DNA of 29,706 bases, taken from assembly GCA_964454175.1 (NCBI GenBank), contig CAYVSA010000016.1, forward strand, positions 3,654 through 33,359, in the 5' to 3' direction. The translations under genes were made by a program, and so were the position numbers. The notes below the pieces were generated by a model. That model was not told the DNA's origin and did not search any database. It saw only the letters and a list, made by a program, of their open reading frames with translations. This stretch comes from an uncultured Pseudomonadota bacterium (GTDB lineage: Bacteria; BMS3Abin14). Shown here piece after piece: positions 2,076 to 27,669 of this stretch (positions within the stretch are counted from its first letter, which is position 1; every line of letters begins with the position of its first letter).

Positions 2076-3261
2076 GATCCTTGATCTCACTACCGAGGCC
2101 ATCCGAAATGAGATGGTTCTCATGGATGTGGATCCCAGGGGGATCGAGATCATGGCGGGAAAAGCCCGCCTCCTGCTGGTCAGGTTTGATGATATGGACC
2201 TGCGCGCAGCTCTTATCCTGAAGCAGGACATACTCTCTCTGGGTGGAGACGCAGCGCTCACCAGGTCTGCGGCGGGACTTAAAGTGGACAGGACACCAGT
2301 CCTGATCATGGGCACTGTCAGACAGCTGTCTGAACTTGCGTTGAAGCTTAAGGACCAGCCTTTCGGACTTGGCGCAATTGCCGATTCGATCGGAGACCTG
2401 CTGGAGAATGCGGCCGGTAAGAGGGTGTTCCTGGTCGGAGGCGAGGATCTGCTCCTTGTAAAAAACGTCCTGGTGATGGGCGTTCTGAACGTTACGGATG
2501 ACTCCTTTTCAGACGGGGGACGCTTCCTTGCAAAGGAAAACGCCGTTGAAAGGGGTGTCGAAATGGCCTCACAGGGGGCCGATATCATTGACGTTGGGGG
2601 AGAATCCACAAGGCCCGGATCTCCTGGAGTTTCGGCTGAACTGGAATCCTCCAGGGTGGTTCCCGTTATCAGCGCTCTGGCCAGAGAAGGTGTGAAGAAC
2701 ATATCTGTTGACACGACGAAGGCCGAAGTCGCTGCAAAGGCACTGGATGCCGGGGCAGGGATTGTAAATGACATAAGTGGGATGTTCTTCGATCCGGCCA
2801 TGGCCGAAACCGTATCGGATTCCGGCGCTTCGGCAGTGCTGATGCACACTGCGGGCAAGCCGGACAGAATGCAGGAAGACACGGATTATGAAGACCTTCT
2901 GGGCAGCGTATATGCATATCTCATGAAGGCTGTCGACGGCGCGATAGCAGCAGGTATTGCACGAGAAAACCTCTGCGTTGATCCAGGCATAGGCTTCGGC
3001 AAGACTCCAGAGCAGAACCTGGAGCTTCTGGGAAGGGTAGGAGAACTCAGGTCGCTGGGAACTGCCGTGATGGTTGGAGCTTCGAGGAAGTCCTTTATCG
3101 GCCATTACCTTGGGCTGGAAGTGGCTGACCGGGTCGAAGGTTCTTTAGCAGCAGCTATTTCTGCAGTTATGTGCGGTGCGGACATGGTCAGAGTTCACGA
3201 TGTGACAGAGACTGTGAGAGCGATCAGACTGACTGAGAAGATTAGACAATGGAGAGTATGA
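2020..3261 (+). CDS. folP: Dihydropteroate synthase with an N-terminal extension of roughly 140 aa
   Basis: [40 protein letters not shown] and VRVHDV motifs; start uncertain (TTG 2020 overlapping ftsH, or ATG 2113). Confidence 0.95.
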
Positions 3262-4094
3262 TCAACACATTGCAGTTCTTTTTCGGGGACTTTCAGTGGA
3301 AAGACCTCCTGGATATCATTGTCGTTGCTGTCATTCTCTACTGGATACTCCTCCTGATCCGCGGAACCCGGGCGCTGCAGATAGTGTTCGGGCTGGTGGT
3401 TCTGGGCGCTGGCTACCTGCTTGCCCTGGGAGCCGAGATGAGTACTCTCGTGTGGATACTGGAAAACTTTCTGGGTTCAATAGTCATCGTGGTGGTGGTC
3501 CTTTTCCAGAACGAGATCCGGCATGCCCTTGCTCTGGTCGGTTCCAACCCCCTCACGGGATCCAACCCAGGTCAACAGAAACTCGTACTGGAAGAGATAG
3601 TTAAGGCGATCAGTTCCCTTTCGAACCGCAGGATCGGGGCCCTGATAGCCCTGGAAAGGTCCACTGGTCTCAAGAATTTCATACAGAAGGGAACGAAGAT
3701 CGATGCTGCCGTCAGCAAAGATCTTCTGATGTCCATTTTCATGCCCTTTTCCCCTATCCACGACGGCGCTGTTATCATAAGTGAGGGGAAAATATCTGCT
3801 GCACAGGTATTCCTGCCCCTCACACTGAACCCCCGCCTGGAAAAAATACTTGGAACCAGGCACAGGGCTGCATTGGGATTCTCAGAGGAAACTGACGCGG
3901 TGATCATCGTTGTATCGGAGGAGACCGGAAAGATCTCCCTGGCCTGTGAAGGCAAAATATACTCACGTCTTGAGGTGGATGAACTCAGGCGCCTCCTGAA
4001 AAAGATGCTCACCGGCGTGGGCAGCCAGGCGCAAACCAACCTCCTGGAGCGGCTGAAAATTGCTGGACATTTTAAGAAAGAACATCGGACTTAA
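3258..4094 (+). CDS. cdaA: Membrane-bound diadenylate cyclase (c-di-AMP synthase), CdaA/DacA type
   Basis: Three N-terminal hydrophobic segments, catalytic HDGA and GTRHRA motifs, VVSEETG; ATG 3258 overlaps the folP stop (ATGA) with GGAG upstream. Confidence 0.95.
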   Translation: MINTLQFFFGDFQWKDLLDIIVVAVILYWILLLIRGTRALQIVFGLVVLGAGYLLALGAEMSTLVWILENFLGSIVIVVVVLFQNEIRHALALVGSNPLTGSNPGQQKLVLEEIVKAISSLSNRRIGALIALERSTGLKNFIQKGTKIDAAVSKDLLMSIFMPFSPIHDGAVIISEGKISAAQVFLPLTLNPRLEKILGTRHRAALGFSEETDAVIIVVSEETGKISLACEGKIYSRLEVDELRRLLKKMLTGVGSQAQTNLLERLKIAGHFKKEHRT

Positions 4095-4743
4095 GATATT
4101 TTCTCTCCTGTTCGCCTTTTTCCTCTGGTCCATAATATCCAGAGGGGCAGGCGGGAGGACCATGGAGGTCAGTGTCTCCATCCCGGTTGAGTTCCAGAAC
4201 CTGTCAACCGAAATGGAGATGGTCGAGCATCCCACAGAGAGGGTCAATGTTCGTTTTTCAGGACCAAGGCGCATTGTGTCCAACATCTCCCAGCTTGGGA
4301 TCACGCTCCCACTGGACCTTGATGGCGCCATGGAGGGACTCACTACATTCGAGCTCTATCCCTCAGCCATCAAGGCTCCGGATATGACAAAGGTCACAAG
4401 GATCAGCCCTTCGATCATTTCGGTAATACTTGAAAGAAGTGGTGAAGAACGATTTCCAATCGAGCCTGTTATCGAAGGCGTTCCTTCACCCGGCTTTAAA
4501 GTCAGCGCAGTAACTGTTGATCCGCTCTTCGTGAGGCTGGCAGGACCGCGGTCAAGTCTTGCCGCTGTCACCATGGTTCAGACAGCTTCAGTTGACATAG
4601 AGGGGGCAATCGATTCGGTGGAGCGTGAGGTGCAGCTGACTCTGCCGGACTCCAGACTCAGAAATACTGAATCTTCCACGGTAAAGGTGGTAGTAAGCAT
4701 AATGCCGCAGGACGGGGAAGTTAAAAAGAGTACGCCGCAGTAG
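4060..4743 (+). CDS. cdaR: YbbR-domain protein, CdaA regulator CdaR
   Basis: N-terminal anchor LKIFSLLFAFFLW, two beta-rich YbbR-like repeats (V.V...GP...), position between cdaA and glmM. Confidence 0.88.
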   Translation: MLDILRKNIGLKIFSLLFAFFLWSIISRGAGGRTMEVSVSIPVEFQNLSTEMEMVEHPTERVNVRFSGPRRIVSNISQLGITLPLDLDGAMEGLTTFELYPSAIKAPDMTKVTRISPSIISVILERSGEERFPIEPVIEGVPSPGFKVSAVTVDPLFVRLAGPRSSLAAVTMVQTASVDIEGAIDSVEREVQLTLPDSRLRNTESSTVKVVVSIMPQDGEVKKSTPQ

Positions 4744-4789
4744 TAGTCCAAACTTAATGTAAAACATTAAAAGAATGTAATAACTATCT

Positions 4790-6169
4790 ATGATTATTGA
4801 TAATAATAAATTATTCGGCACTGATGGTGTGCGTGGGCAGGCCAATACCTATCCAATAACTTCTGAAGTTGCGCTGCGGCTGGGCATGGCAGCAGGCCTT
4901 CTTTTTAAAAACCACAGTGACCGGTCCAGGATTGTGATCGGCAAGGATACGCGCCTTTCCGGATACATACTGGAATCCGCACTTATGTCAGGTATCTGCG
5001 CCATGGGCTCGGACGTTTATCTTGTTGGGCCCATGCCGACACCCGCTATTGCTTTTATAACCCGCACAATGAGGGCAGACGCAGGAATCGTCATATCTGC
5101 CTCACACAACCCGTTTCAGGATAACGGCATTAAGTTTTTTGGCCCCGACGGCAGAAAACTGGCGGACGGCGTCGAGAATAAACTGGAAGCGCTCGCACGA
5201 GAAGATAACGTTAAGCGCCCAACCCACGGCGAGGTCGGCAGGGCCTACAGGCTGGATGACGCCGAGGGGCGATACATTGAGTACGCGAAGAACACCATCC
5301 CCAAGGGAATGGTGTTTGACGGGCTCAAGATGGTAGTTGACTGTGCCAACGGAGCCGGGTACGTGGTCGCGCCAACGATATTCAGAGAGCTGGGGGCCCA
5401 GGTATCGGCCATCGGAACCGACCCGGATGGACTCAACATCAACGAAGGCTGCGGGTCAACCTGTCCTGAACGCATGGTTGAGATGGTAGTTGAGGCCGGT
5501 GCTGATATCGGGTTGGCCCTTGATGGGGACGGTGACAGAGCTATCTTCTGCGATGCCGAGGGCAGCATTGCTGATGGCGACGATGTTCTTTACATCTGCG
5601 GGAATCACGCCCTGAAAACCGGGCGTCTGCCCGGCAGCACCATAGTAGGCACGGAGATGACCAACATGGGCCTGGAAGCGGCCCTGCGGGCATCGGGGAT
5701 AGATCTAATAAGATCTGCAGTTGGAGACAGGTACGTTCTTGAGAAAATGAAAAGTTCCGGGTCTACCCTTGGCGGGGAGCCGTCAGGGCACGTCATATTC
5801 ATGGATCACAGTACTACGGGTGATGGCGTTATAACTGCTCTGCAGCTCGTCAACTGCATGGTCAACACGGGTCTTGCACTTAAAGACCTCAGAGAAGGGT
5901 GGAAGAGGTATCCACAGGTAATGAAGAATATCAGGGTGAGGGAGAAGATCCCGCTTGCCGAACTGGACTGGCTCGAACCCGTGATCACGGAGGCCGAGAG
6001 TACAATGGGAGATGACCGGATTCTGAACCTGCGGTACTCAGGAACCGAACCGCTGCTCAGACTCACTGTCTCCTGTGAATCCCCAGATACCGTTGACAAT
6101 ATCGCGGAGAGTCTCTGTCTGCGACTGACCGAGGGGCTGGGCAGCAAGTATCCCGATGATGTTAGTTGA
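4790..6169 (+). CDS. glmM: Phosphoglucosamine mutase
   Basis: FGTDGVRG, active-site SASHNP, metal-binding DGDGDR, GGEPSGH, RYSGTEP. Confidence 0.96.
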   Translation: MIIDNNKLFGTDGVRGQANTYPITSEVALRLGMAAGLLFKNHSDRSRIVIGKDTRLSGYILESALMSGICAMGSDVYLVGPMPTPAIAFITRTMRADAGIVISASHNPFQDNGIKFFGPDGRKLADGVENKLEALAREDNVKRPTHGEVGRAYRLDDAEGRYIEYAKNTIPKGMVFDGLKMVVDCANGAGYVVAPTIFRELGAQVSAIGTDPDGLNINEGCGSTCPERMVEMVVEAGADIGLALDGDGDRAIFCDAEGSIADGDDVLYICGNHALKTGRLPGSTIVGTEMTNMGLEAALRASGIDLIRSAVGDRYVLEKMKSSGSTLGGEPSGHVIFMDHSTTGDGVITALQLVNCMVNTGLALKDLREGWKRYPQVMKNIRVREKIPLAELDWLEPVITEAESTMGDDRILNLRYSGTEPLLRLTVSCESPDTVDNIAESLCLRLTEGLGSKYPDDVS

Positions 6170-14272: not shown

Positions 14273-14387
14273 TGCAGTTCTGTAAGCTGCAGGTGAGTGA
14301 GATCACTCGTGCTGCATTTGGTCAGAGAATTGGGGTTGATCAGATTCGTTCAGCGGTACTTTCGGAGTGGATGGAAAGGAGTATGTT

Positions 14388-15542
14388 ATGAGGAGAAGGT
14401 TCGTAGTAAGCAGTCTTACTGTTCTGGTTCTTAGTCTGTCCTTCCTCGTGTTTGGCTGCAGCAAGAAGGCGGCGCAGCCTGCCGAGACGATAAAAATACC
14501 TGTTGCCTCACCCTTCACGGGGCAGCTGGCATCGTTCGGTGAGGGTGTCAAGAATGGCGCCCTTCTCGCAGCTGAAGACATCAACTCCGCTGGAGGTATA
14601 GGTGGAAAGAACGTTGAGATCGTCCTCGGGGATGACCTTTGCGATCCCAAAGAGGCCGCCAACGTTGCCACAAAGTTCGCCGCCGACACGGGGGTTTCCG
14701 TAGTAGTTGGCCACTTGTGCAGCTCCTCAACCATGGCAGCGCTGCCCATCTACAAGGAAGCCAAGCTCCCCGCTATCTCACCAGCAAGCACCAATGTGAA
14801 GATCGGCAAGATGAGCCCGTACTACTTCAGGAACGTCTACAAGGATGACTTCCAGGGAACATTCCTGGCCAAGTATTCCAAAAAAGTGCGAAATCACAGC
14901 AAGGTTGCTATCTTTTTTGAGACCAACGACTATTCCATAGGGCTCAAGGACGCTTTTGTGGCTGAGGCGAAAAAGCAGGGGCTGAATATTGTCGGGCAGG
15001 AGTCCTACACTTCTGATACGACCGATTTCACTTCATCACTCACCAAGTTCAGGGCCCAGTCCCCGGACGCTATTTTTATTCCCGGATATGCTCCACAGGC
15101 GACCCTGATAGTTGCCCAGGCAGCCAAGCTGGGGATCAAAGTGGACTACTTCGGCGCTGACGGCCTTGATGACAACATCATGCTGGAAAACCCCGATGCA
15201 GAAGGGCTGTTCGTGACGAGCCCGTTCCTGCCTGACAGAGCGGGACCGGATGCACAGTCATTTATCAAGTCCTACACCGCCAAATACAATAAGGAGCCAA
15301 ACTGGTTCGCCGCCAACACCTACGACGCAGTCCGAATGGCCTCAGACGCAATTGCCAACGCAGGACAGGACAGGGAAAAGGTCAAGGACTATCTCGCTGG
15401 TCTTAACACCCCCGCAAAGGCGTACATGGGTGTTACCGGTGCTACCTATTTCGATGAGAACGGCGACTGTCTGAAACCGGCCTTCATCAAGAACATAAAG
15501 GGCGGAAAGTGGGTAAGTGCCGCCACGCAGCTGACCGAGTAG
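14388..15542 (+). CDS. livK: Branched-chain amino acid ABC transporter substrate-binding lipoprotein (LivJ/LivK family)
   Basis: SD AAGGAG at 14376-14381; lipobox-like VFGC; INSAGGIGG, DDLCDPKEA, GHLCSSST, ISPAST, YDAV motifs. Confidence 0.88.
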   Translation: MRRRFVVSSLTVLVLSLSFLVFGCSKKAAQPAETIKIPVASPFTGQLASFGEGVKNGALLAAEDINSAGGIGGKNVEIVLGDDLCDPKEAANVATKFAADTGVSVVVGHLCSSSTMAALPIYKEAKLPAISPASTNVKIGKMSPYYFRNVYKDDFQGTFLAKYSKKVRNHSKVAIFFETNDYSIGLKDAFVAEAKKQGLNIVGQESYTSDTTDFTSSLTKFRAQSPDAIFIPGYAPQATLIVAQAAKLGIKVDYFGADGLDDNIMLENPDAEGLFVTSPFLPDRAGPDAQSFIKSYTAKYNKEPNWFAANTYDAVRMASDAIANAGQDREKVKDYLAGLNTPAKAYMGVTGATYFDENGDCLKPAFIKNIKGGKWVSAATQLTE

Positions 15543-15764: not shown

Positions 15765-16682
15765 TTGATTGATTCATTCCTGGGCAACTTTTCACTGTTG
15801 GGCCAACAGCTTGTTAATGGCATTACGCTGGGTTCAGTTTATGCTCTTATAGCTGTCGGTTACACCATGGTTTACGGCGTAATTGAACTCATTAATTTTG
15901 CCCATGGCGAAGTCTACATGATGGGAGCATTCTTCTCCTTTACTATGGTAACCAGCATGGGATTGAACTTCTGGGTGGCTTTTCCGGTCACCATCATCCT
16001 TTGCGCCATCCTGGGTGTTCTTCTTGACATTATTGCCTACCGGCCACTGAGACAGGCACCGAGATTGGCAGCACTGATCACTGCCATCGGTATGTCCCTT
16101 TTCCTGCAGAATTTCGCGCTCATTATCTGGGGGTCCCAGATAAAATCATTCCCCGCCGCAACTTTGCCGGAGGTGTTCACACATTCGGCGTTTATAATGG
16201 GGGATATAATCATCTCCTGGCTGCAGATATTTATCCTGGCGGTGGCGACTGGAATGATGGCGGCCCTTCACGCAATTATCCACTATACCAGGGTGGGTAC
16301 TGCCATGCGCGCCATTGCTCAGGACAAGGTTACAGCTTCTCTGATGGGGATAAACGTAAACAGGGTGATCTCCTTTACTTTCGCGATAGGCTCGGCCATG
16401 GGTGGTGTTGCCGGGATACTTGTTGGAATGTACTACAATGCGATCTGGCCCACCATGGGCTACATAGCCGGGATCAAGGCATTTGCCGCCGCCGTCCTGG
16501 GCGGCATCGGTTCGGTACCCGGAGCGATGCTGGGCGGAGGTGTTCTTGGTATGGCAGAGGTTCTTGGATCCGGTTATATCTCCTCTGCTTACAGGGATGG
16601 GATAGCTTATGCCGTCATGATACTTGTCATTATTTTCAAACCTTCTGGACTTCTGGGTAAGTCCACGCTGCAGAAGGTGTGA
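15765..16682 (+). CDS. livH: Branched-chain amino acid ABC transporter permease LivH
   Basis: QQLVNGITLGSVYALIAVGYTMVYG..INFAHGE, G.AMRAIAQD, KAFAAAVLGGIG. Confidence 0.95.
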   Translation: MIDSFLGNFSLLGQQLVNGITLGSVYALIAVGYTMVYGVIELINFAHGEVYMMGAFFSFTMVTSMGLNFWVAFPVTIILCAILGVLLDIIAYRPLRQAPRLAALITAIGMSLFLQNFALIIWGSQIKSFPAATLPEVFTHSAFIMGDIIISWLQIFILAVATGMMAALHAIIHYTRVGTAMRAIAQDKVTASLMGINVNRVISFTFAIGSAMGGVAGILVGMYYNAIWPTMGYIAGIKAFAAAVLGGIGSVPGAMLGGGVLGMAEVLGSGYISSAYRDGIAYAVMILVIIFKPSGLLGKSTLQKV

Positions 16683-16683
16683 A

Positions 16684-17805
16684 GTGAAACTCTCGATGTT
16701 TGCAAATATTCTGGAAAAAGTGCCTGGTGGCTCAAGGACCCTGTTATTTTTGTTTTGCCTGGCTGTTCTCGCTCTGCCTCTTGTCATGGTCGGGTTCGGA
16801 GCTCAGTATCTCCTGCGAATTGTAACTCTCAGTATGCTTTATATGGTTCTGGCCCTCGGATTGAACATCGTTCCAGGTTTTACCGGACTTCTCGACCTTG
16901 GATATGTTGGTTTTTACGGGATCGGGGCCTACACTGCCGGGCTTCTAACGATACATTTCGGTCTCTCATTCTGGGTCATACTTCCCATTGCGGCACTTAA
17001 TGGTGCTCTGTGGGGTATCATGCTGGGCGCACCCACACTCAGGCTGACAGGTGATTACTTTGCCATAGTGACCTTCGGGTTCTCGGAACTGGTTGTACTT
17101 GTTATTCGGAACGAACTGTGGCTGACGAGGGGTCCCATGGGTCTTCCGGGCATAGCGCCTCCCTCTGTTTTCGGTCACACTTTAAGGAAGGGCTGGGAAT
17201 ATTATTACCTCATTCTGGCTATACTGCTCCTGGTGGTTTTCATTGTAAGGCGGATAGAAGATTCCAGGCTCGGCAGGGCATGGTTCGCCATACGGGAGGA
17301 CGAGATAGCCGCAGAGTGCGTTGGTATAAATATTATTAATTACAAGATAATTGCTTTTGCTACCAGCGCTTCCATTGGTGGATTGGGCGGCGCATTTTTT
17401 GCCAAGTGGTTCCTGTTTATCCATCCTGATATGTTCAAATTCTGGGAATCGATCTTGATACTTTGTCTGATCGTCTTCGGAGGCATGGGCAGTATAAAAG
17501 GTACGATGGTGGGTGCTGCCGTGCTGATACCCCTCACCGAGGTCCTCAGGTCGATACTTCTTAAGATACCGCACCTGCTTGCCAGTGTTGGAGTAGCCGT
17601 CTCCGATGACCTTGGACAGAACCTTGTCCAGGCACGCTACCTCCTTTTCGGGCTTATCCTGGTACTTATGATGAGGTTCCGTCCGGAGGGACTCTTCCCC
17701 GTTACCAGGGTTAAGGCGGAGATGCACTCCGACGAACCGTCCACGGCCTCTGAAGATGAGTCCATTTACGACAAGAGAAAAGTACAGAAGGTCAAGAAAG
17801 TATGA
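16684..17805 (+). CDS. livM: Branched-chain amino acid ABC transporter permease LivM (start GTG 16684 or ATG 16696)
   Basis: LGLNIVPGFTGLLDLGY, LRLTGDYFAIVTFGF, SRLGRAWFAIREDE, GGMGS, RPEGL. Confidence 0.94.
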   Translation: MKLSMFANILEKVPGGSRTLLFLFCLAVLALPLVMVGFGAQYLLRIVTLSMLYMVLALGLNIVPGFTGLLDLGYVGFYGIGAYTAGLLTIHFGLSFWVILPIAALNGALWGIMLGAPTLRLTGDYFAIVTFGFSELVVLVIRNELWLTRGPMGLPGIAPPSVFGHTLRKGWEYYYLILAILLLVVFIVRRIEDSRLGRAWFAIREDEIAAECVGINIINYKIIAFATSASIGGLGGAFFAKWFLFIHPDMFKFWESILILCLIVFGGMGSIKGTMVGAAVLIPLTEVLRSILLKIPHLLASVGVAVSDDLGQNLVQARYLLFGLILVLMMRFRPEGLFPVTRVKAEMHSDEPSTASEDESIYDKRKVQKVKKV

Positions 17806-19052
17806 TGGGCAGCAGAGATGACATTGGTAAGGTTATGACTATGGGGAAAAAGGCACCGGAAACGGGCGGAAGGCTCCTTGATGGCGCTAACCTGGGAAAG
17901 GTATTCGGAGGGCTGGCTGCACTGGAAGGGGTGGACCTCCATGTGGACGAAGGGGAGATCGTTGGGCTCATAGGTCCTAATGGCGCAGGAAAGACGACCC
18001 TGTTTAACTGCCTGACTGGTATAACTATCCCTTCGACGGGGACCATCAGGTTCGGCGGCGCCGATCTCGTACCGCTTCCAATGATCACCCTTCTCGGCCA
18101 GCTTTCACGGATGTGCAGGTTTTTTATTCTTTTGTCTGTCATGTGGACCCTTACGGTCCTGGGTGCGTATTTCCCCGGAGCCGAGTTTCCAATGGAATTC
18201 ACTATGGCCTTGTGCGGATTAGGGGCTTTCAGAATATTTGTGGGTGCCATGCTCAAGAGGGCAGTGCCCTGGACCAGGGGGGTGACCCTCCTTTTTGCAA
18301 CCACTGATGCAGTCCTTGCAGCCACATGGATGATAAAGTTTAGTGAGATCTGGTCAGATGCTACTTTTTTTGGTCTCGGCAAACTGGAATACCTCATGGT
18401 CCCACTGTCCGTGGTGATGATCTCGTACCCGATTTACTTTTTCGTCGTTCTTTTGAGAAAGGACGTAAAAACGCTTTTCGGGATTTTCATGAGGCCAGAT
18501 GACGTTACCAGGCTTGGCATGGCAAGGACCTTTCAGAATATACGTCTCTTTTCCAACCTGTCAGTCCTGGACAATGTCAAGCTTGGCAGGCACTGCCGAA
18601 CGAAGAGCAACTTTTTTTCCTGTGTCCTTCACACAAAATCACAGCGTAACGAGGAAGAAGAGACGACTCTGAAGGCGATGGAGGCACTGAGCTTCGTTGG
18701 ACTGGGACACAAGGCGGAGAGTCTTGCTTCCAGCCTTCCCTATGGCGAACAGAGAAGACTGGAGATAGCAAGGGCCCTGGCAACTGAACCCCAGCTTCTT
18801 TTGCTGGATGAGCCTGCGGCTGGCATGAATCCAAACGAGACGGAATCCCTTATCAGGCTGATCCTGAAGATCAGGAGCAGTGGTGTTTCGGTCCTACTCA
18901 TAGAGCACGACATGAAAGTGATAATGAGGATCTCAGAGCGCATACTTGTACTCGATCACGGCAGAAAGATCGCCGAGGGTGATCCGAAATCCATCAGGAA
19001 GGACCCCAGGGTCGTTGAAGCCTACCTGGGTTCAGCATACGCGGCGCAGTAG
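17802..19052 (+). CDS. livG: LivG-type ABC ATPase with an internal ~139-aa multi-transmembrane insertion
   Basis: Walker A GPNGAGKT, GMARTFQ Q-loop, LPYGEQRR signature, LLLLDEPAAG, IEHDM, DPRVVEAYLG; hydrophobic insert at aa ~91-229. Confidence 0.92.
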   Translation: MMGSRDDIGKVMTMGKKAPETGGRLLDGANLGKVFGGLAALEGVDLHVDEGEIVGLIGPNGAGKTTLFNCLTGITIPSTGTIRFGGADLVPLPMITLLGQLSRMCRFFILLSVMWTLTVLGAYFPGAEFPMEFTMALCGLGAFRIFVGAMLKRAVPWTRGVTLLFATTDAVLAATWMIKFSEIWSDATFFGLGKLEYLMVPLSVVMISYPIYFFVVLLRKDVKTLFGIFMRPDDVTRLGMARTFQNIRLFSNLSVLDNVKLGRHCRTKSNFFSCVLHTKSQRNEEEETTLKAMEALSFVGLGHKAESLASSLPYGEQRRLEIARALATEPQLLLLDEPAAGMNPNETESLIRLILKIRSSGVSVLLIEHDMKVIMRISERILVLDHGRKIAEGDPKSIRKDPRVVEAYLGSAYAAQ

Positions 19053-19157: not shown

Positions 19158-19862
19158 ATGTTGAAAGTCAAAGACATACACACTTATTACGGATCGATCC
19201 ACGCCCTGAAGGGTGTCTCCTTCGCTGTGAAAGAGGGTCAGATCGTTACCCTCATAGGCGCAAACGGAGCAGGAAAGTCCACAACACTCATGTCCATATC
19301 GGGTGTCCATCCGCCCGAACGGGGAGAGATCGTCTTCAGAGGCGGGGAGATCACTAAAAAACAGCCCGACAGGATAGTTCAGAGCGGCATCTCTCAGGTT
19401 CCGGAGGGCAGGAGGATCTTTCCGCACCTTTCGGTCAGAGAAAATCTCCTGATGGGTTCCTACATCCGGAAGGATAAGCATGCAGTGGAAGAAGATCTGA
19501 GTGGGGTACTGGAGTTGTTTCCCGTTCTGGCCGAGAGGGAGAAGCAGGATGGGGGAACCCTGTCGGGGGGCGAGCAGCAGATGCTGGCCATTGGCAGAGC
19601 ACTTATGGCAAGGCCAAGACTGCTCCTCCTTGATGAACCGTCCCTGGGACTTGCACCGATAGTCGTTGAAAAGATATTCGAGGTGATAGAAGAGATCAAC
19701 AGGCAGGGTACCACTATACTGCTTGTGGAACAGAATGCCTTTATGGCCCTTAACATAGCCGACAGGGGTTACGTCATAGAGACTGGCAGAGTTGTGCTTG
19801 AAGATGAGGCCAGGACCCTGCTTGACAACCCGAAGGTAAAAGAAGCCTACCTGGGGGAGTAG
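19158..19862 (+). CDS. livF: Branched-chain amino acid ABC transporter ATPase LivF
   Basis: GANGAGKS, VPEGRRIF, LSGGEQQMLAIGRALM, LLLDEPSLGLAP, VEQN, EAYLG. Confidence 0.96.
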   Translation: MLKVKDIHTYYGSIHALKGVSFAVKEGQIVTLIGANGAGKSTTLMSISGVHPPERGEIVFRGGEITKKQPDRIVQSGISQVPEGRRIFPHLSVRENLLMGSYIRKDKHAVEEDLSGVLELFPVLAEREKQDGGTLSGGEQQMLAIGRALMARPRLLLLDEPSLGLAPIVVEKIFEVIEEINRQGTTILLVEQNAFMALNIADRGYVIETGRVVLEDEARTLLDNPKVKEAYLGE

Positions 19863-20004: not shown

Positions 20005-20121
20005 TCCCCCTACTACCGGGTCACATTTAAGGGCAGATGAAACTGATTTTGTAATCATCCGATATTTCGGCCGTAATACAAGTATACTTGTACAGGGCAC
20101 CAACCAGCAGGGAGGTTGTAT

Positions 20122-21516
20122 ATGAAAAGGGTGTTGGGATGTACGGCTGTAATTATTCTCTGTTCATTTGTTGTGGTTTTATCGACACATGCCTTTGTGC
20201 TTTCACTAAAGGACAAGGCCGCGCTTCAGTGGCACAGTATTGCGGGACCGCCCACGGCAAACCCTGACGTCGAATTCAAAGGTGATATAACCAGGGGAGA
20301 GACTGCCAGGGACCGCTTCAGCGACAAACCCCTGTGGATCGTATCAGGTGTTTTCGAGGATGAAGCACCTTCAGGGCTGGCTGTCGTATTTGAGGGAGGG
20401 ATACTCCGATACCTTACCCTTACAACAACAGGTATCAGAACCATTTCTACGACCAACGGCGTATCAGAAGACTCGCCACCTGTGATCACAGCTGACGCAG
20501 TCGGCTGGATCGGAAAGGGTGTAATCTGCATAGACTCACGCGGCAGTCTGGTGATAATCACCCCTGAAGACGGCCGTACGAGACCTCTTGCCGGCGGTTT
20601 CTCCAAGGTGTCATACCCCACCGTTGCTGATCTTGATGGAGATGGTGAAAACGACATTCTCGCGGTGGATGAGAATGGCCGGTTCACAGTTGTTACCTCC
20701 AGAAATACAAGCAGGACTGAAAAAAGGACTTCCCTGCCGCCGGACGCGAGAGTGGCTGTAGGGGATCTTGACGCAGACGGCAGGCTCGAGGCCGTTGCAC
20801 TCACACAACCGACCAGTGATTTTGAATTCGGACACCTTGGCGACAATATCGAGCCCGTTGGATTCGGGGTTTTCACCTGGGACGGAAAAACAGTCAAGCT
20901 GGAGGATGAGTTCGTACTCAAGTCCGGCCGGGCTTTCGAGGACCACACACCGCTGCTGGCTGACGTTGCCGAGAGTGATGGACTTGAGATCATTTTGCCT
21001 GTCACACAAGAGGGCAGCGGAACAAGGCTCAGATCTTTTTCTTTCGTATCTGGCCGTATCAGGGAAGTCCGAAGCGGTCCCAGGTCCGGGGCCGGCAGTT
21101 GGCTGCACCCTGTGTCGGTTGGTGTGGTAGGGGATGATGAGCGTGTGTCGGTTCTTTCTGTTACAGACCCCGACGGTGCAGGCACGCTGGAATCCTACAG
21201 ACCCGACCTGGCCCTGACCAGGATCAAGCTTGAAAAAGAGATATCCACACACATACCCGGGACGAGAACTGTAGAAACGGCTTTGCTTGGGGATTTTAAT
21301 TCCGACGGGGAAAATGAGCTCCTTGCCCCGAACACGGACAGGAAAAGCCTGAATATAGTGTCCCTCAGGAAAAACAGATTCAGGACTTGGGAGATCTACA
21401 ACGGTACCAGGAACCTGTCCACAAATCTCGCACCCGGAGATTACAATGGCGACGGAAAGGGTGATGTTGCTGCTGGTTTTGATGATGGAAGTATTATTAT
21501 ATTTCTTGGAAAATAG
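20122..21516 (+). CDS. Secreted FG-GAP/VCBS-repeat (beta-propeller-like) protein
   Basis: SD GGAGG at 20111-20115, signal peptide ending STHA, repeated Ca-binding-like motifs [40 protein letters not shown]. Confidence 0.85.

Positions 21517-27594: not shown

Positions 27595-27669
<75 letters not shown>

Follow-up and report, generated by a model that had tools for sequence, protein, structure and literature searches.

The stretch of DNA analysed here (the window) comprises 29,706 nucleotides of contig CAYVSA010000016.1 from an uncultured Pseudomonadota bacterium (assembly GCA_964454175.1) and contains a five-gene operon of the HAAT type of ATP-binding cassette (ABC) importers, in the order substrate-binding protein-LivH-LivM-LivG-LivF. 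The fourth gene is the subject of this analysis. It is an open reading frame (ORF) at 17802..19052 on the + strand that encodes a LivG-type ABC ATPase of 416 aa and contains no internal stop. Within its nucleotide-binding domain (NBD) lies a nested insert of 140 residues (aa 91-230, nt 18072-18491), at a point where the LivG homologue MJ1267 (1g6h) has three (residues 72-74). The insert follows the beta strand GTIRFGGADLV and is itself followed by RPDDVTRLG, the helix running into the Q-loop, and its mapped bounds agree to within one codon with the 18072-18488 given in a preliminary description of the same DNA. The parts of the gene are listed below, hydropathy being given on the Kyte-Doolittle (KD) scale.

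17802..18071, + strand: N-terminal part of the LivG NBD (aa 1-90), with the first beta strands, Walker A GPNGAGKT (aa 58-65) and the strand GTIRFGGADLV
18072..18491, + strand: nested insert (aa 91-230), made up of a linker, four hydrophobic predicted helices, three loops and a linker; conserved in 17 homologues
18111..18179, + strand: predicted transmembrane helix 1 (TM1, aa 104-126), KD 1.78, with invariant S112
18198..18254, + strand: predicted TM2 (aa 133-151), KD 1.78, with invariant E132 just before it and invariant R144 inside
18255..18278, + strand: loop 2 (aa 152-159, KRAVPWTR), predicted to be cytoplasmic, with invariant W157 and 2-3 Lys/Arg in 17/17 homologues
18279..18341, + strand: predicted TM3 (aa 160-180), KD 1.51, the weakest of the four, with invariant D169
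18393..18455, + strand: predicted TM4 (aa 198-218), KD 2.18
18456..18491, + strand: basic return linker (aa 219-230, RKDVKTLFGIFM), in which F226 and G227 are invariant; conservation averages 0.76 across aa 219-231
18492..19052, + strand: C-terminal part of the LivG NBD (aa 231-416), with the helix RPDDVTRLG, Q245, the helical-subdomain insert typical of the LivG family at about aa 265-287, LPYGEQ, Walker B, H369 and the EAYLG tail

A LivG ATPase interrupted before the Q-loop

The protein belongs to the LivG family of ATPases, as judged from its motifs, its best matches and its operon. The Walker A motif GPNGAGKT (58-65), the Q-loop glutamine Q245, the signature LPYGEQ (312-317), the Walker B motif LLLLDEP (332-338) with its catalytic glutamate, the H-loop histidine H369 and the EAYLG tail (406-410) are all intact, and the protein thereby carries every element expected of the ABC ATPase superfamily (PF00005). 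The gene most likely encodes a catalytically competent LivG-type ATPase. The LivG/LivF C-terminal motif BCA_ABC_TP_C (PF12399) was found at aa 388-413 (5e-11), while the Pfam ABC_tran model matched with an E-value of 1.8e-28 in two stretches, the best of which is printed as aa 41-91. The top PDB match was MJ1267 (PDB 1G6H/1GAJ/1G9X), with query residues 26-89 aligned to chain residues 8-71 and query residues 231-410 aligned to chain residues 75-256. The preliminary description had proposed an over-long LivG with a continuous frame and intact motifs whose domain is split after GTIRFGGADLV and resumes near aa 231, and the ORF, the located motifs and the break of both alignments are in keeping with each of these points. 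The top NCBIfam model was LivG (NF008449) at 274.2 bits, below its equivalog cut-off of 362 because the insert splits the model match; LivH, LivM and LivF also fall under their NCBIfam cut-offs, as expected for a distant lineage. With 416 aa and four segments of KD 1.51-2.18 inside the NBD, the protein departs from the soluble, continuous NBD of about 230-280 aa. Two antisense ORFs (17792..18397 and 18577..18834) matched no family.

The insert is a conserved part of the protein. Seven of its residues (S112, E132, R144, W157, D169, F226 and G227) are invariant in 17/17 sequences and likewise in a second alignment of 12 inserts. Mean conservation is 0.59-0.65 in the helices, 0.70 in loop 1, 0.75 in loop 2 and 0.76 in the return linker, with the NBD at 0.79-0.81, and the basic motifs LKRAVPWTR and LLRKDVKTLF quoted in the preliminary description both lie within it. 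Counted from the cytoplasmic helix end, R144 is 8 residues into TM2, D169 is 10 residues into TM3 and S112 is 8-9 residues into TM1. This spacing would place the three residues at a similar mid-membrane depth in helices 1, 2 and 3, where they may form a buried polar cluster with R144 and D169 paired between the antiparallel helices 2 and 3. LivM contains a W-L-T-R-G motif similar to the PWTRG of loop 2, but the LivM copy lies in a periplasmic loop by its charge pattern and the likeness was taken as coincidence.

In its canonical form, as in the E. coli LivG model NF008449 and MJ1267, LivG of the HAAT importers, family TC 3.A.1.4, shares the same motifs and the PF12399 tail and is likewise encoded alongside LivH, LivM, LivF and a binding protein, but is a soluble protein of 250-275 aa with 2-3 residues at the site that here holds 140 hydrophobic residues. 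The "LivG insert" of the literature is a different element, being located in the helical subdomain (PMC3776845), and the window's protein aligns through the helical-subdomain region to 1g6h. Extra domains that modulate the ATPase cycle of importer NBDs have been described for MetN (C2) and ModC (PMC10710835). These are soluble C-terminal domains that bind substrate in the cytoplasm, whereas the LivG module is internal and hydrophobic and matches no such family. The regulatory insertion (RI, residues 405-436) of CFTR NBD1 offers a precedent for a lineage-specific insertion with a regulatory role inside an ABC NBD, although the RI is a disordered, soluble and phosphorylated segment of about 30 residues (PMC3776845) as against 140 hydrophobic ones in LivG. 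A literature search, with subscription journals outside its coverage, returned no account of an NBD, LivG included, with membrane helices inside it. The CFTR RI presumably lies between the first beta strands, a site different from that of the LivG insert.

Distribution, selection and origin of the insert

The nested-insert LivG is a rare architecture common to a few bacterial lineages. A word-seeded search with the insert recovered 11 proteins, all LivG-type and 55-99% identical across the insert, while an exhaustive phmmer search of 1.84 billion representatives (E <= 0.001) gave four matches of which three were real, these being a fragment, P0014 (31%) and P0015 (37%). The fourth was a repeat protein aligned across just 30 residues and was set aside. 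In alignment A3 the identity to the window's insert was 30-33% for the P0014/Deferrisoma branch and 34% for P0015. Deferrisoma palaeochoriense, a named cultured species with a culture-collection locus tag, contributes to the P0014 branch a protein annotated just as hypothetical. By six-frame profile searches, 9 of the 401 sampled genomes carry the insert, comprising 6/16 genomes of the window's own single-family phylum (the window's genome counted) and three genomes of another family. In the phylum of this second lineage, all six genomes carry a shorter insert of 123 residues that is without most of loop 3. A further four genome contigs and three metagenome contigs with the insert came from collection scans; the metagenome loci L040 and L041 were rejected as spurious since they hold no LivG ORF, and an apparent LivM-LivG fusion in L025 proved to be two overlapping frames.

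Over all sources, at least 12 genomes from two phyla have the architecture, as do further metagenome contigs and a cultured species, with the frame open in every case. The same insert at the same site in independent assemblies of four branches is not an assembly artefact. This answers both the call of the preliminary description for a comparison of the insertion site across genomes and its reservation that the assembly might be chimeric; the further reservation that the architecture might belong to a well-annotated, widespread family is countered by the three real matches in 1.84 billion and by the absence of any Pfam or NCBIfam model for the insert. Read mapping across 18050-18510, which it also proposed, reached one end of the insert. 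Among the public reads one run (word share 0.33, kept as contigs) holds part of the stretch, with no RNA run listed, and a single 225-nt contig of this run (17913-18137) bridges the 5' junction with 3 mismatches while the 3' junction is without cover. The run was not counted as independent support because it is possibly the source sample.

The insert is under purifying selection, evolving about twice as fast as the ATPase but clearly constrained. In the two pairs unsaturated at synonymous sites, omega was 0.087 and 0.156 in the insert vs 0.050 and 0.064 in the C-terminal NBD, while in the second phylum the five pairs that yielded an estimate gave insert values of 0.19-0.29 at a synonymous divergence (dS) above 1. 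The GC content at third codon positions (GC3) of the insert (0.593) is close to that of its flanks (0.600 and 0.613). One homologue, P0015 (405 aa, metagenome), has a degenerate signature (LGADDRR) and Gln for the H-loop His while keeping the insert and its invariant residues, and on these grounds may be a non-catalytic LivG.

The explanation that the insert is an artefact or junk, whether through chimeric assembly, a frame error or a neutral selfish or foreign insertion without function, draws on the origin of the window from a 135-contig assembly and on the single public run that holds part of the stretch and covers only the 5' junction. Set against this are the recurrence of the architecture with open frames in two phyla, metagenomes and a cultured species, the purifying selection, the GC3 equal to that of the flanks, the lack of any match to the insert in a plasmid search and the lack of a repeat or mobile signature. 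The explanation is close to refuted, and the residual probability left to it is negligible.

A tree built on the NBD columns only placed 15 insert-bearing proteins in one clade (92/90) that is sister (90/83) to four insert-less LivGs of related genomes. At the base, the position of the second phylum's two sequences was not resolved, and a single clade of all 17 was not rejected (approximately unbiased (AU) test, p = 0.37). The four sister LivGs (G003, G005, G008 and G009; loci L031-L034) are the nearest insert-less relatives found, with 262-275 aa and an NBD 59-61% identical to that of the window, but they belong to a different liv operon in which LivM is only 46-48% identical. At the exact insertion site they carry a 12-residue loop (e.g. 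PPGKKADRINGL) whose opening (L/I)(V/I)P matches that of the insert, while other LivG and LivF proteins have two residues there, which makes this loop a hot spot for length change. The sister loop may be a precursor-like state or a remnant; with a maximum KD of 0.86-1.13, these proteins are free of hydrophobic segments. In the window's family, genomes without the insert are also without the orthologous operon, with their best LivM being 46-48% identical in these four genomes and lower in G007, as compared with 71-77% for orthologues.

Searches with the insert itself gave no relatives outside LivG. Pfam searches of 9 inserts at E up to 10 gave nothing consistent, NCBIfam gave 0 families, a PDB profile search with alignment A3 gave 0 matches at E up to 10, and in the ESM Atlas the insert alone had no usable match while full-length P0010 matched only ordinary LivG clusters. 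A search for stand-alone homologues of 79-265 aa recovered two truncated LivG fragments only. Derivation of the insert from LivH or LivM (BPD_transp_2) was rejected with hhalign probabilities of 0.1% against LivM and 0.5% against LivH, as was an internal hairpin duplication (probability 0.16%).

Predicted topology and proposed role of the module

The four hydrophobic stretches claimed by the preliminary description were found as KD peaks over 19 residues at aa 104-122 (1.78), 133-151 (1.78), 160-178 (1.51) and 200-218 (2.18), forming predicted membrane segments of 19-23 residues. The homologues' insert segments above 1.5 peak at 1.51-2.42, comparable to the 1.57-2.82 of LivH and LivM segments, with the per-protein maximum of 11 insert-less LivG and LivF proteins being 0.86-1.54. 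In a survey of the 38 ABC domains of the genome, 37 had a Walker A-Walker B spacing of 115-165 residues and a maximum hydropathy of no more than 1.41, the insert-bearing LivG alone having a spacing of 274 residues and a hydropathy of 2.18. Being an outlier in both respects, the insert is more than a chance feature. Across the 17 homologues loop 1 contains no Lys/Arg, loop 2 contains 2-3 and the return linker contains 2-4, in 17/17 in each case, which is the positive-inside pattern of a topology with both the N and the C terminus of the module in the cytoplasm (N-in/C-in). The insert is thus predicted to span the membrane four times, in keeping with the earlier argument that an even number of helices returns the chain to the cytoplasm, and the nested helix block probably makes LivG an integral membrane protein. 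Several points weigh against this assignment. The evidence for membrane insertion consists of hydropathy and charge bias only, the helical periodicity of conservation across the insert is weak, TM3 is weak (1.51), TM2 and TM3 each contain one charged residue, and at a threshold of 1.5 four peaks were seen in 11/17 homologues with three in the other six.

It is proposed, with a probability of roughly 0.6, that the conserved four-helix membrane module within LivG anchors the protein beside LivH/LivM as an integral subunit whose ATPase is still active. The module would occupy the loop that joins the beta-hairpin after Walker A to the short helix leading into the Q-loop, such that the chain would exit the cytoplasmic domain, cross the membrane four times and return to complete the NBD. 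LivG would in this way be fixed as an integral membrane subunit next to the LivH and LivM of its own five-gene operon, with permanent anchoring and positioning of the ATPase at the transporter as the primary role of the module. That it may be more than a passive tether is suggested by the conservation of loop 2 and the return linker, which is nearly that of the ATPase, and by the invariant polar residues S112, R144 and D169, and the module is possibly also coupled allosterically to the Q-loop. From general knowledge of the NBD fold, the helix that precedes the Q-loop strand is taken here to have its N terminus towards the membrane side.

The same observations can be read differently. The module could chiefly be a sensor or regulator, in which a buried polar cluster of S112, E132, R144 and D169 binds or senses an ion, protons, membrane potential or lipid and gates ATP hydrolysis, with the signal passing via loop 2 and the return linker into the helix before the Q-loop. 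This is tentative and somewhat unlikely. It would account for charged residues in predicted membrane helices that are invariant across four branches, for a conservation of loop 2 (0.75) and the return linker (0.76) that exceeds that of the helices (0.59-0.65) and approaches that of the NBD (0.79-0.81), and for the attachment of the insert directly before the Q-loop helix; the genome also keeps two ordinary liv systems, so the insert system may be specialised. However, the Arg-Asp pair and the serine could do no more than stabilise a small bundle of helices, the insert matches no ligand-binding family, and the retention of the insert in P0015 despite its degenerate signature and H-loop is compatible with a structural and with a regulatory role alike. 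A bolder form of the idea, which we consider unlikely, makes the module a functional fifth membrane component in which the Ser-Arg-Asp cluster, with Glu132 from the outer end of helix 2, would bind or sense an ion, protons or membrane potential and transmit the signal via the PWTRG loop and the LFG linker to the Q-loop helix, gating ATP hydrolysis from within the membrane. A further alternative is that the insert does not span the membrane at all, but forms a hydrophobic helical domain packed against either the NBD or the cytoplasmic side of LivHM, or dips into one leaflet only. The marginal TM3 (1.51), the three peaks found in 6/17 homologues and the charged residues within two segments would be consistent with this, yet four segments of 19-23 residues equal the LivH and LivM helices in hydropathy, the charge bias of the loops alternates strictly in 17/17 homologues, and soluble LivG and LivF proteins reach a maximum of 1.54 with the 37 other NBDs of the genome reaching 1.41. 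A non-spanning insert is therefore considered very unlikely, and anchoring of LivG beside LivH and LivM is retained as the preferred reading.

ABC importers are textbook modular machines, with membrane domains in the membrane and soluble ATPases docked to their underside. An ATPase whose catalytic core is interrupted by a membrane domain would break this layout and raises the questions of how the protein folds and inserts co-translationally, given that four membrane helices are synthesised between the two halves of the NBD, of how permanent tethering affects the large NBD movements of the transport cycle and of whether the membrane module feeds information to the Q-loop. The case is a tractable one, with a compact operon, natural controls in the insert-less sister LivG and two ordinary liv systems, and a named carrier in Deferrisoma palaeochoriense. 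Were gating by the module to hold true, ATP hydrolysis by an ABC importer would be controlled directly from within the membrane.

The operon and its surroundings

The other genes of the operon are listed below.

14367..15542, + strand: substrate-binding protein (LivJ/K-like), Pfam Peripla_BP_6 1.7e-62, with a lipobox-like VFGC near the N terminus
15765..16682, + strand: LivH-type permease, Pfam BPD_transp_2 3e-47; top NCBIfam match LivH, 272.9 bits against a cut-off of 379
16624..17805, + strand: LivM-type permease, Pfam BPD_transp_2 5.7e-44; start probably near 16696 by orthologue alignment
19158..19862, + strand: LivF, the ordinary soluble partner ATPase of 234 aa, ABC_tran 1.2e-32 in one stretch; top NCBIfam match LivF; maximum KD 1.22

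The LivM stop overlaps the LivG start (ATGA). The gene order is kept in both phyla, between which the binding protein, LivH, LivM and LivF are 63-67% identical. With the whole five-gene operon common to both phyla, the insert travels with one HAAT subfamily. Two ordinary liv systems with soluble LivGs of 256 and 275 aa are present in the same genome. The LivM of the insert operon is not shorter than its paralogues, so the insert does not replace lost permease helices; the preliminary description had reached the same view from the presence of both LivH and LivM. The amino-acid substrate class of the operon is suggested by the family-level likeness of the binding protein only, its top NCBIfam match being a branched-chain amino acid subfamily of substrate-binding proteins, under the cut-off. 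An RNA-family scan of the window gave one match, a tRNA-Gly (GCC) at 27595-27669, and no riboswitch or other substrate clue, while promoter and terminator scans gave results at chance level.

Positions specific to the insert-type operons, being invariant there and never found in sister or paralogous proteins, number 35 in LivH and 38 in LivM. Such residues were considered as a docking site for the module and rejected, since any orthologous group would show them, and docking of LivG on LivHM accordingly gains nothing from them. In the insert-type operons LivH also has a group-specific insertion of 5 residues (aa 130-134) and LivM is without an 8-column N-terminal stretch of other LivMs. The window-family orthologues of LivM share a conserved acidic cytoplasmic tail (EMHxD...EDxSLYDxR; window 17700-17802); the LivM of the second phylum, at 310-314 aa, lacks it. 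Binding-protein orthologues of the window's family have a lipobox-like Cys (VFGC, FAAC, FAGC or VIGC; window 14388-14480), while those of the second phylum have a signal peptide without Cys, indicating that a lipid anchor on the binding protein is not correlated with the LivG insert.

In genome G001, which looks complete (L018:5040-5770 and L023:520-1500), LivG-LivF apparently lies far from LivH-LivM. A spacer of about 450 nt of short tandem motifs follows LivM, where it includes the first LivG bases, and occurs again before LivG, the two copies being about 820 kb apart and 95-97% identical. The split is probably an assembly or masking artefact because the near-identical spacers both end in runs of N.

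Directly downstream of LivF the window encodes a 466-aa FG-GAP repeat protein (20116-21516) with an N-terminal hydrophobic segment and no NCBIfam match, which is kept beside LivF in orthologous window-family loci at 41-62% identity. Upstream of the operon, at 3249-6169, lies an ordinary cluster of cdaA (DAC domain with an N-terminal membrane domain), ybbR and a phosphoglucosamine-mutase-type gene, the usual neighbourhood of a c-di-AMP synthase.

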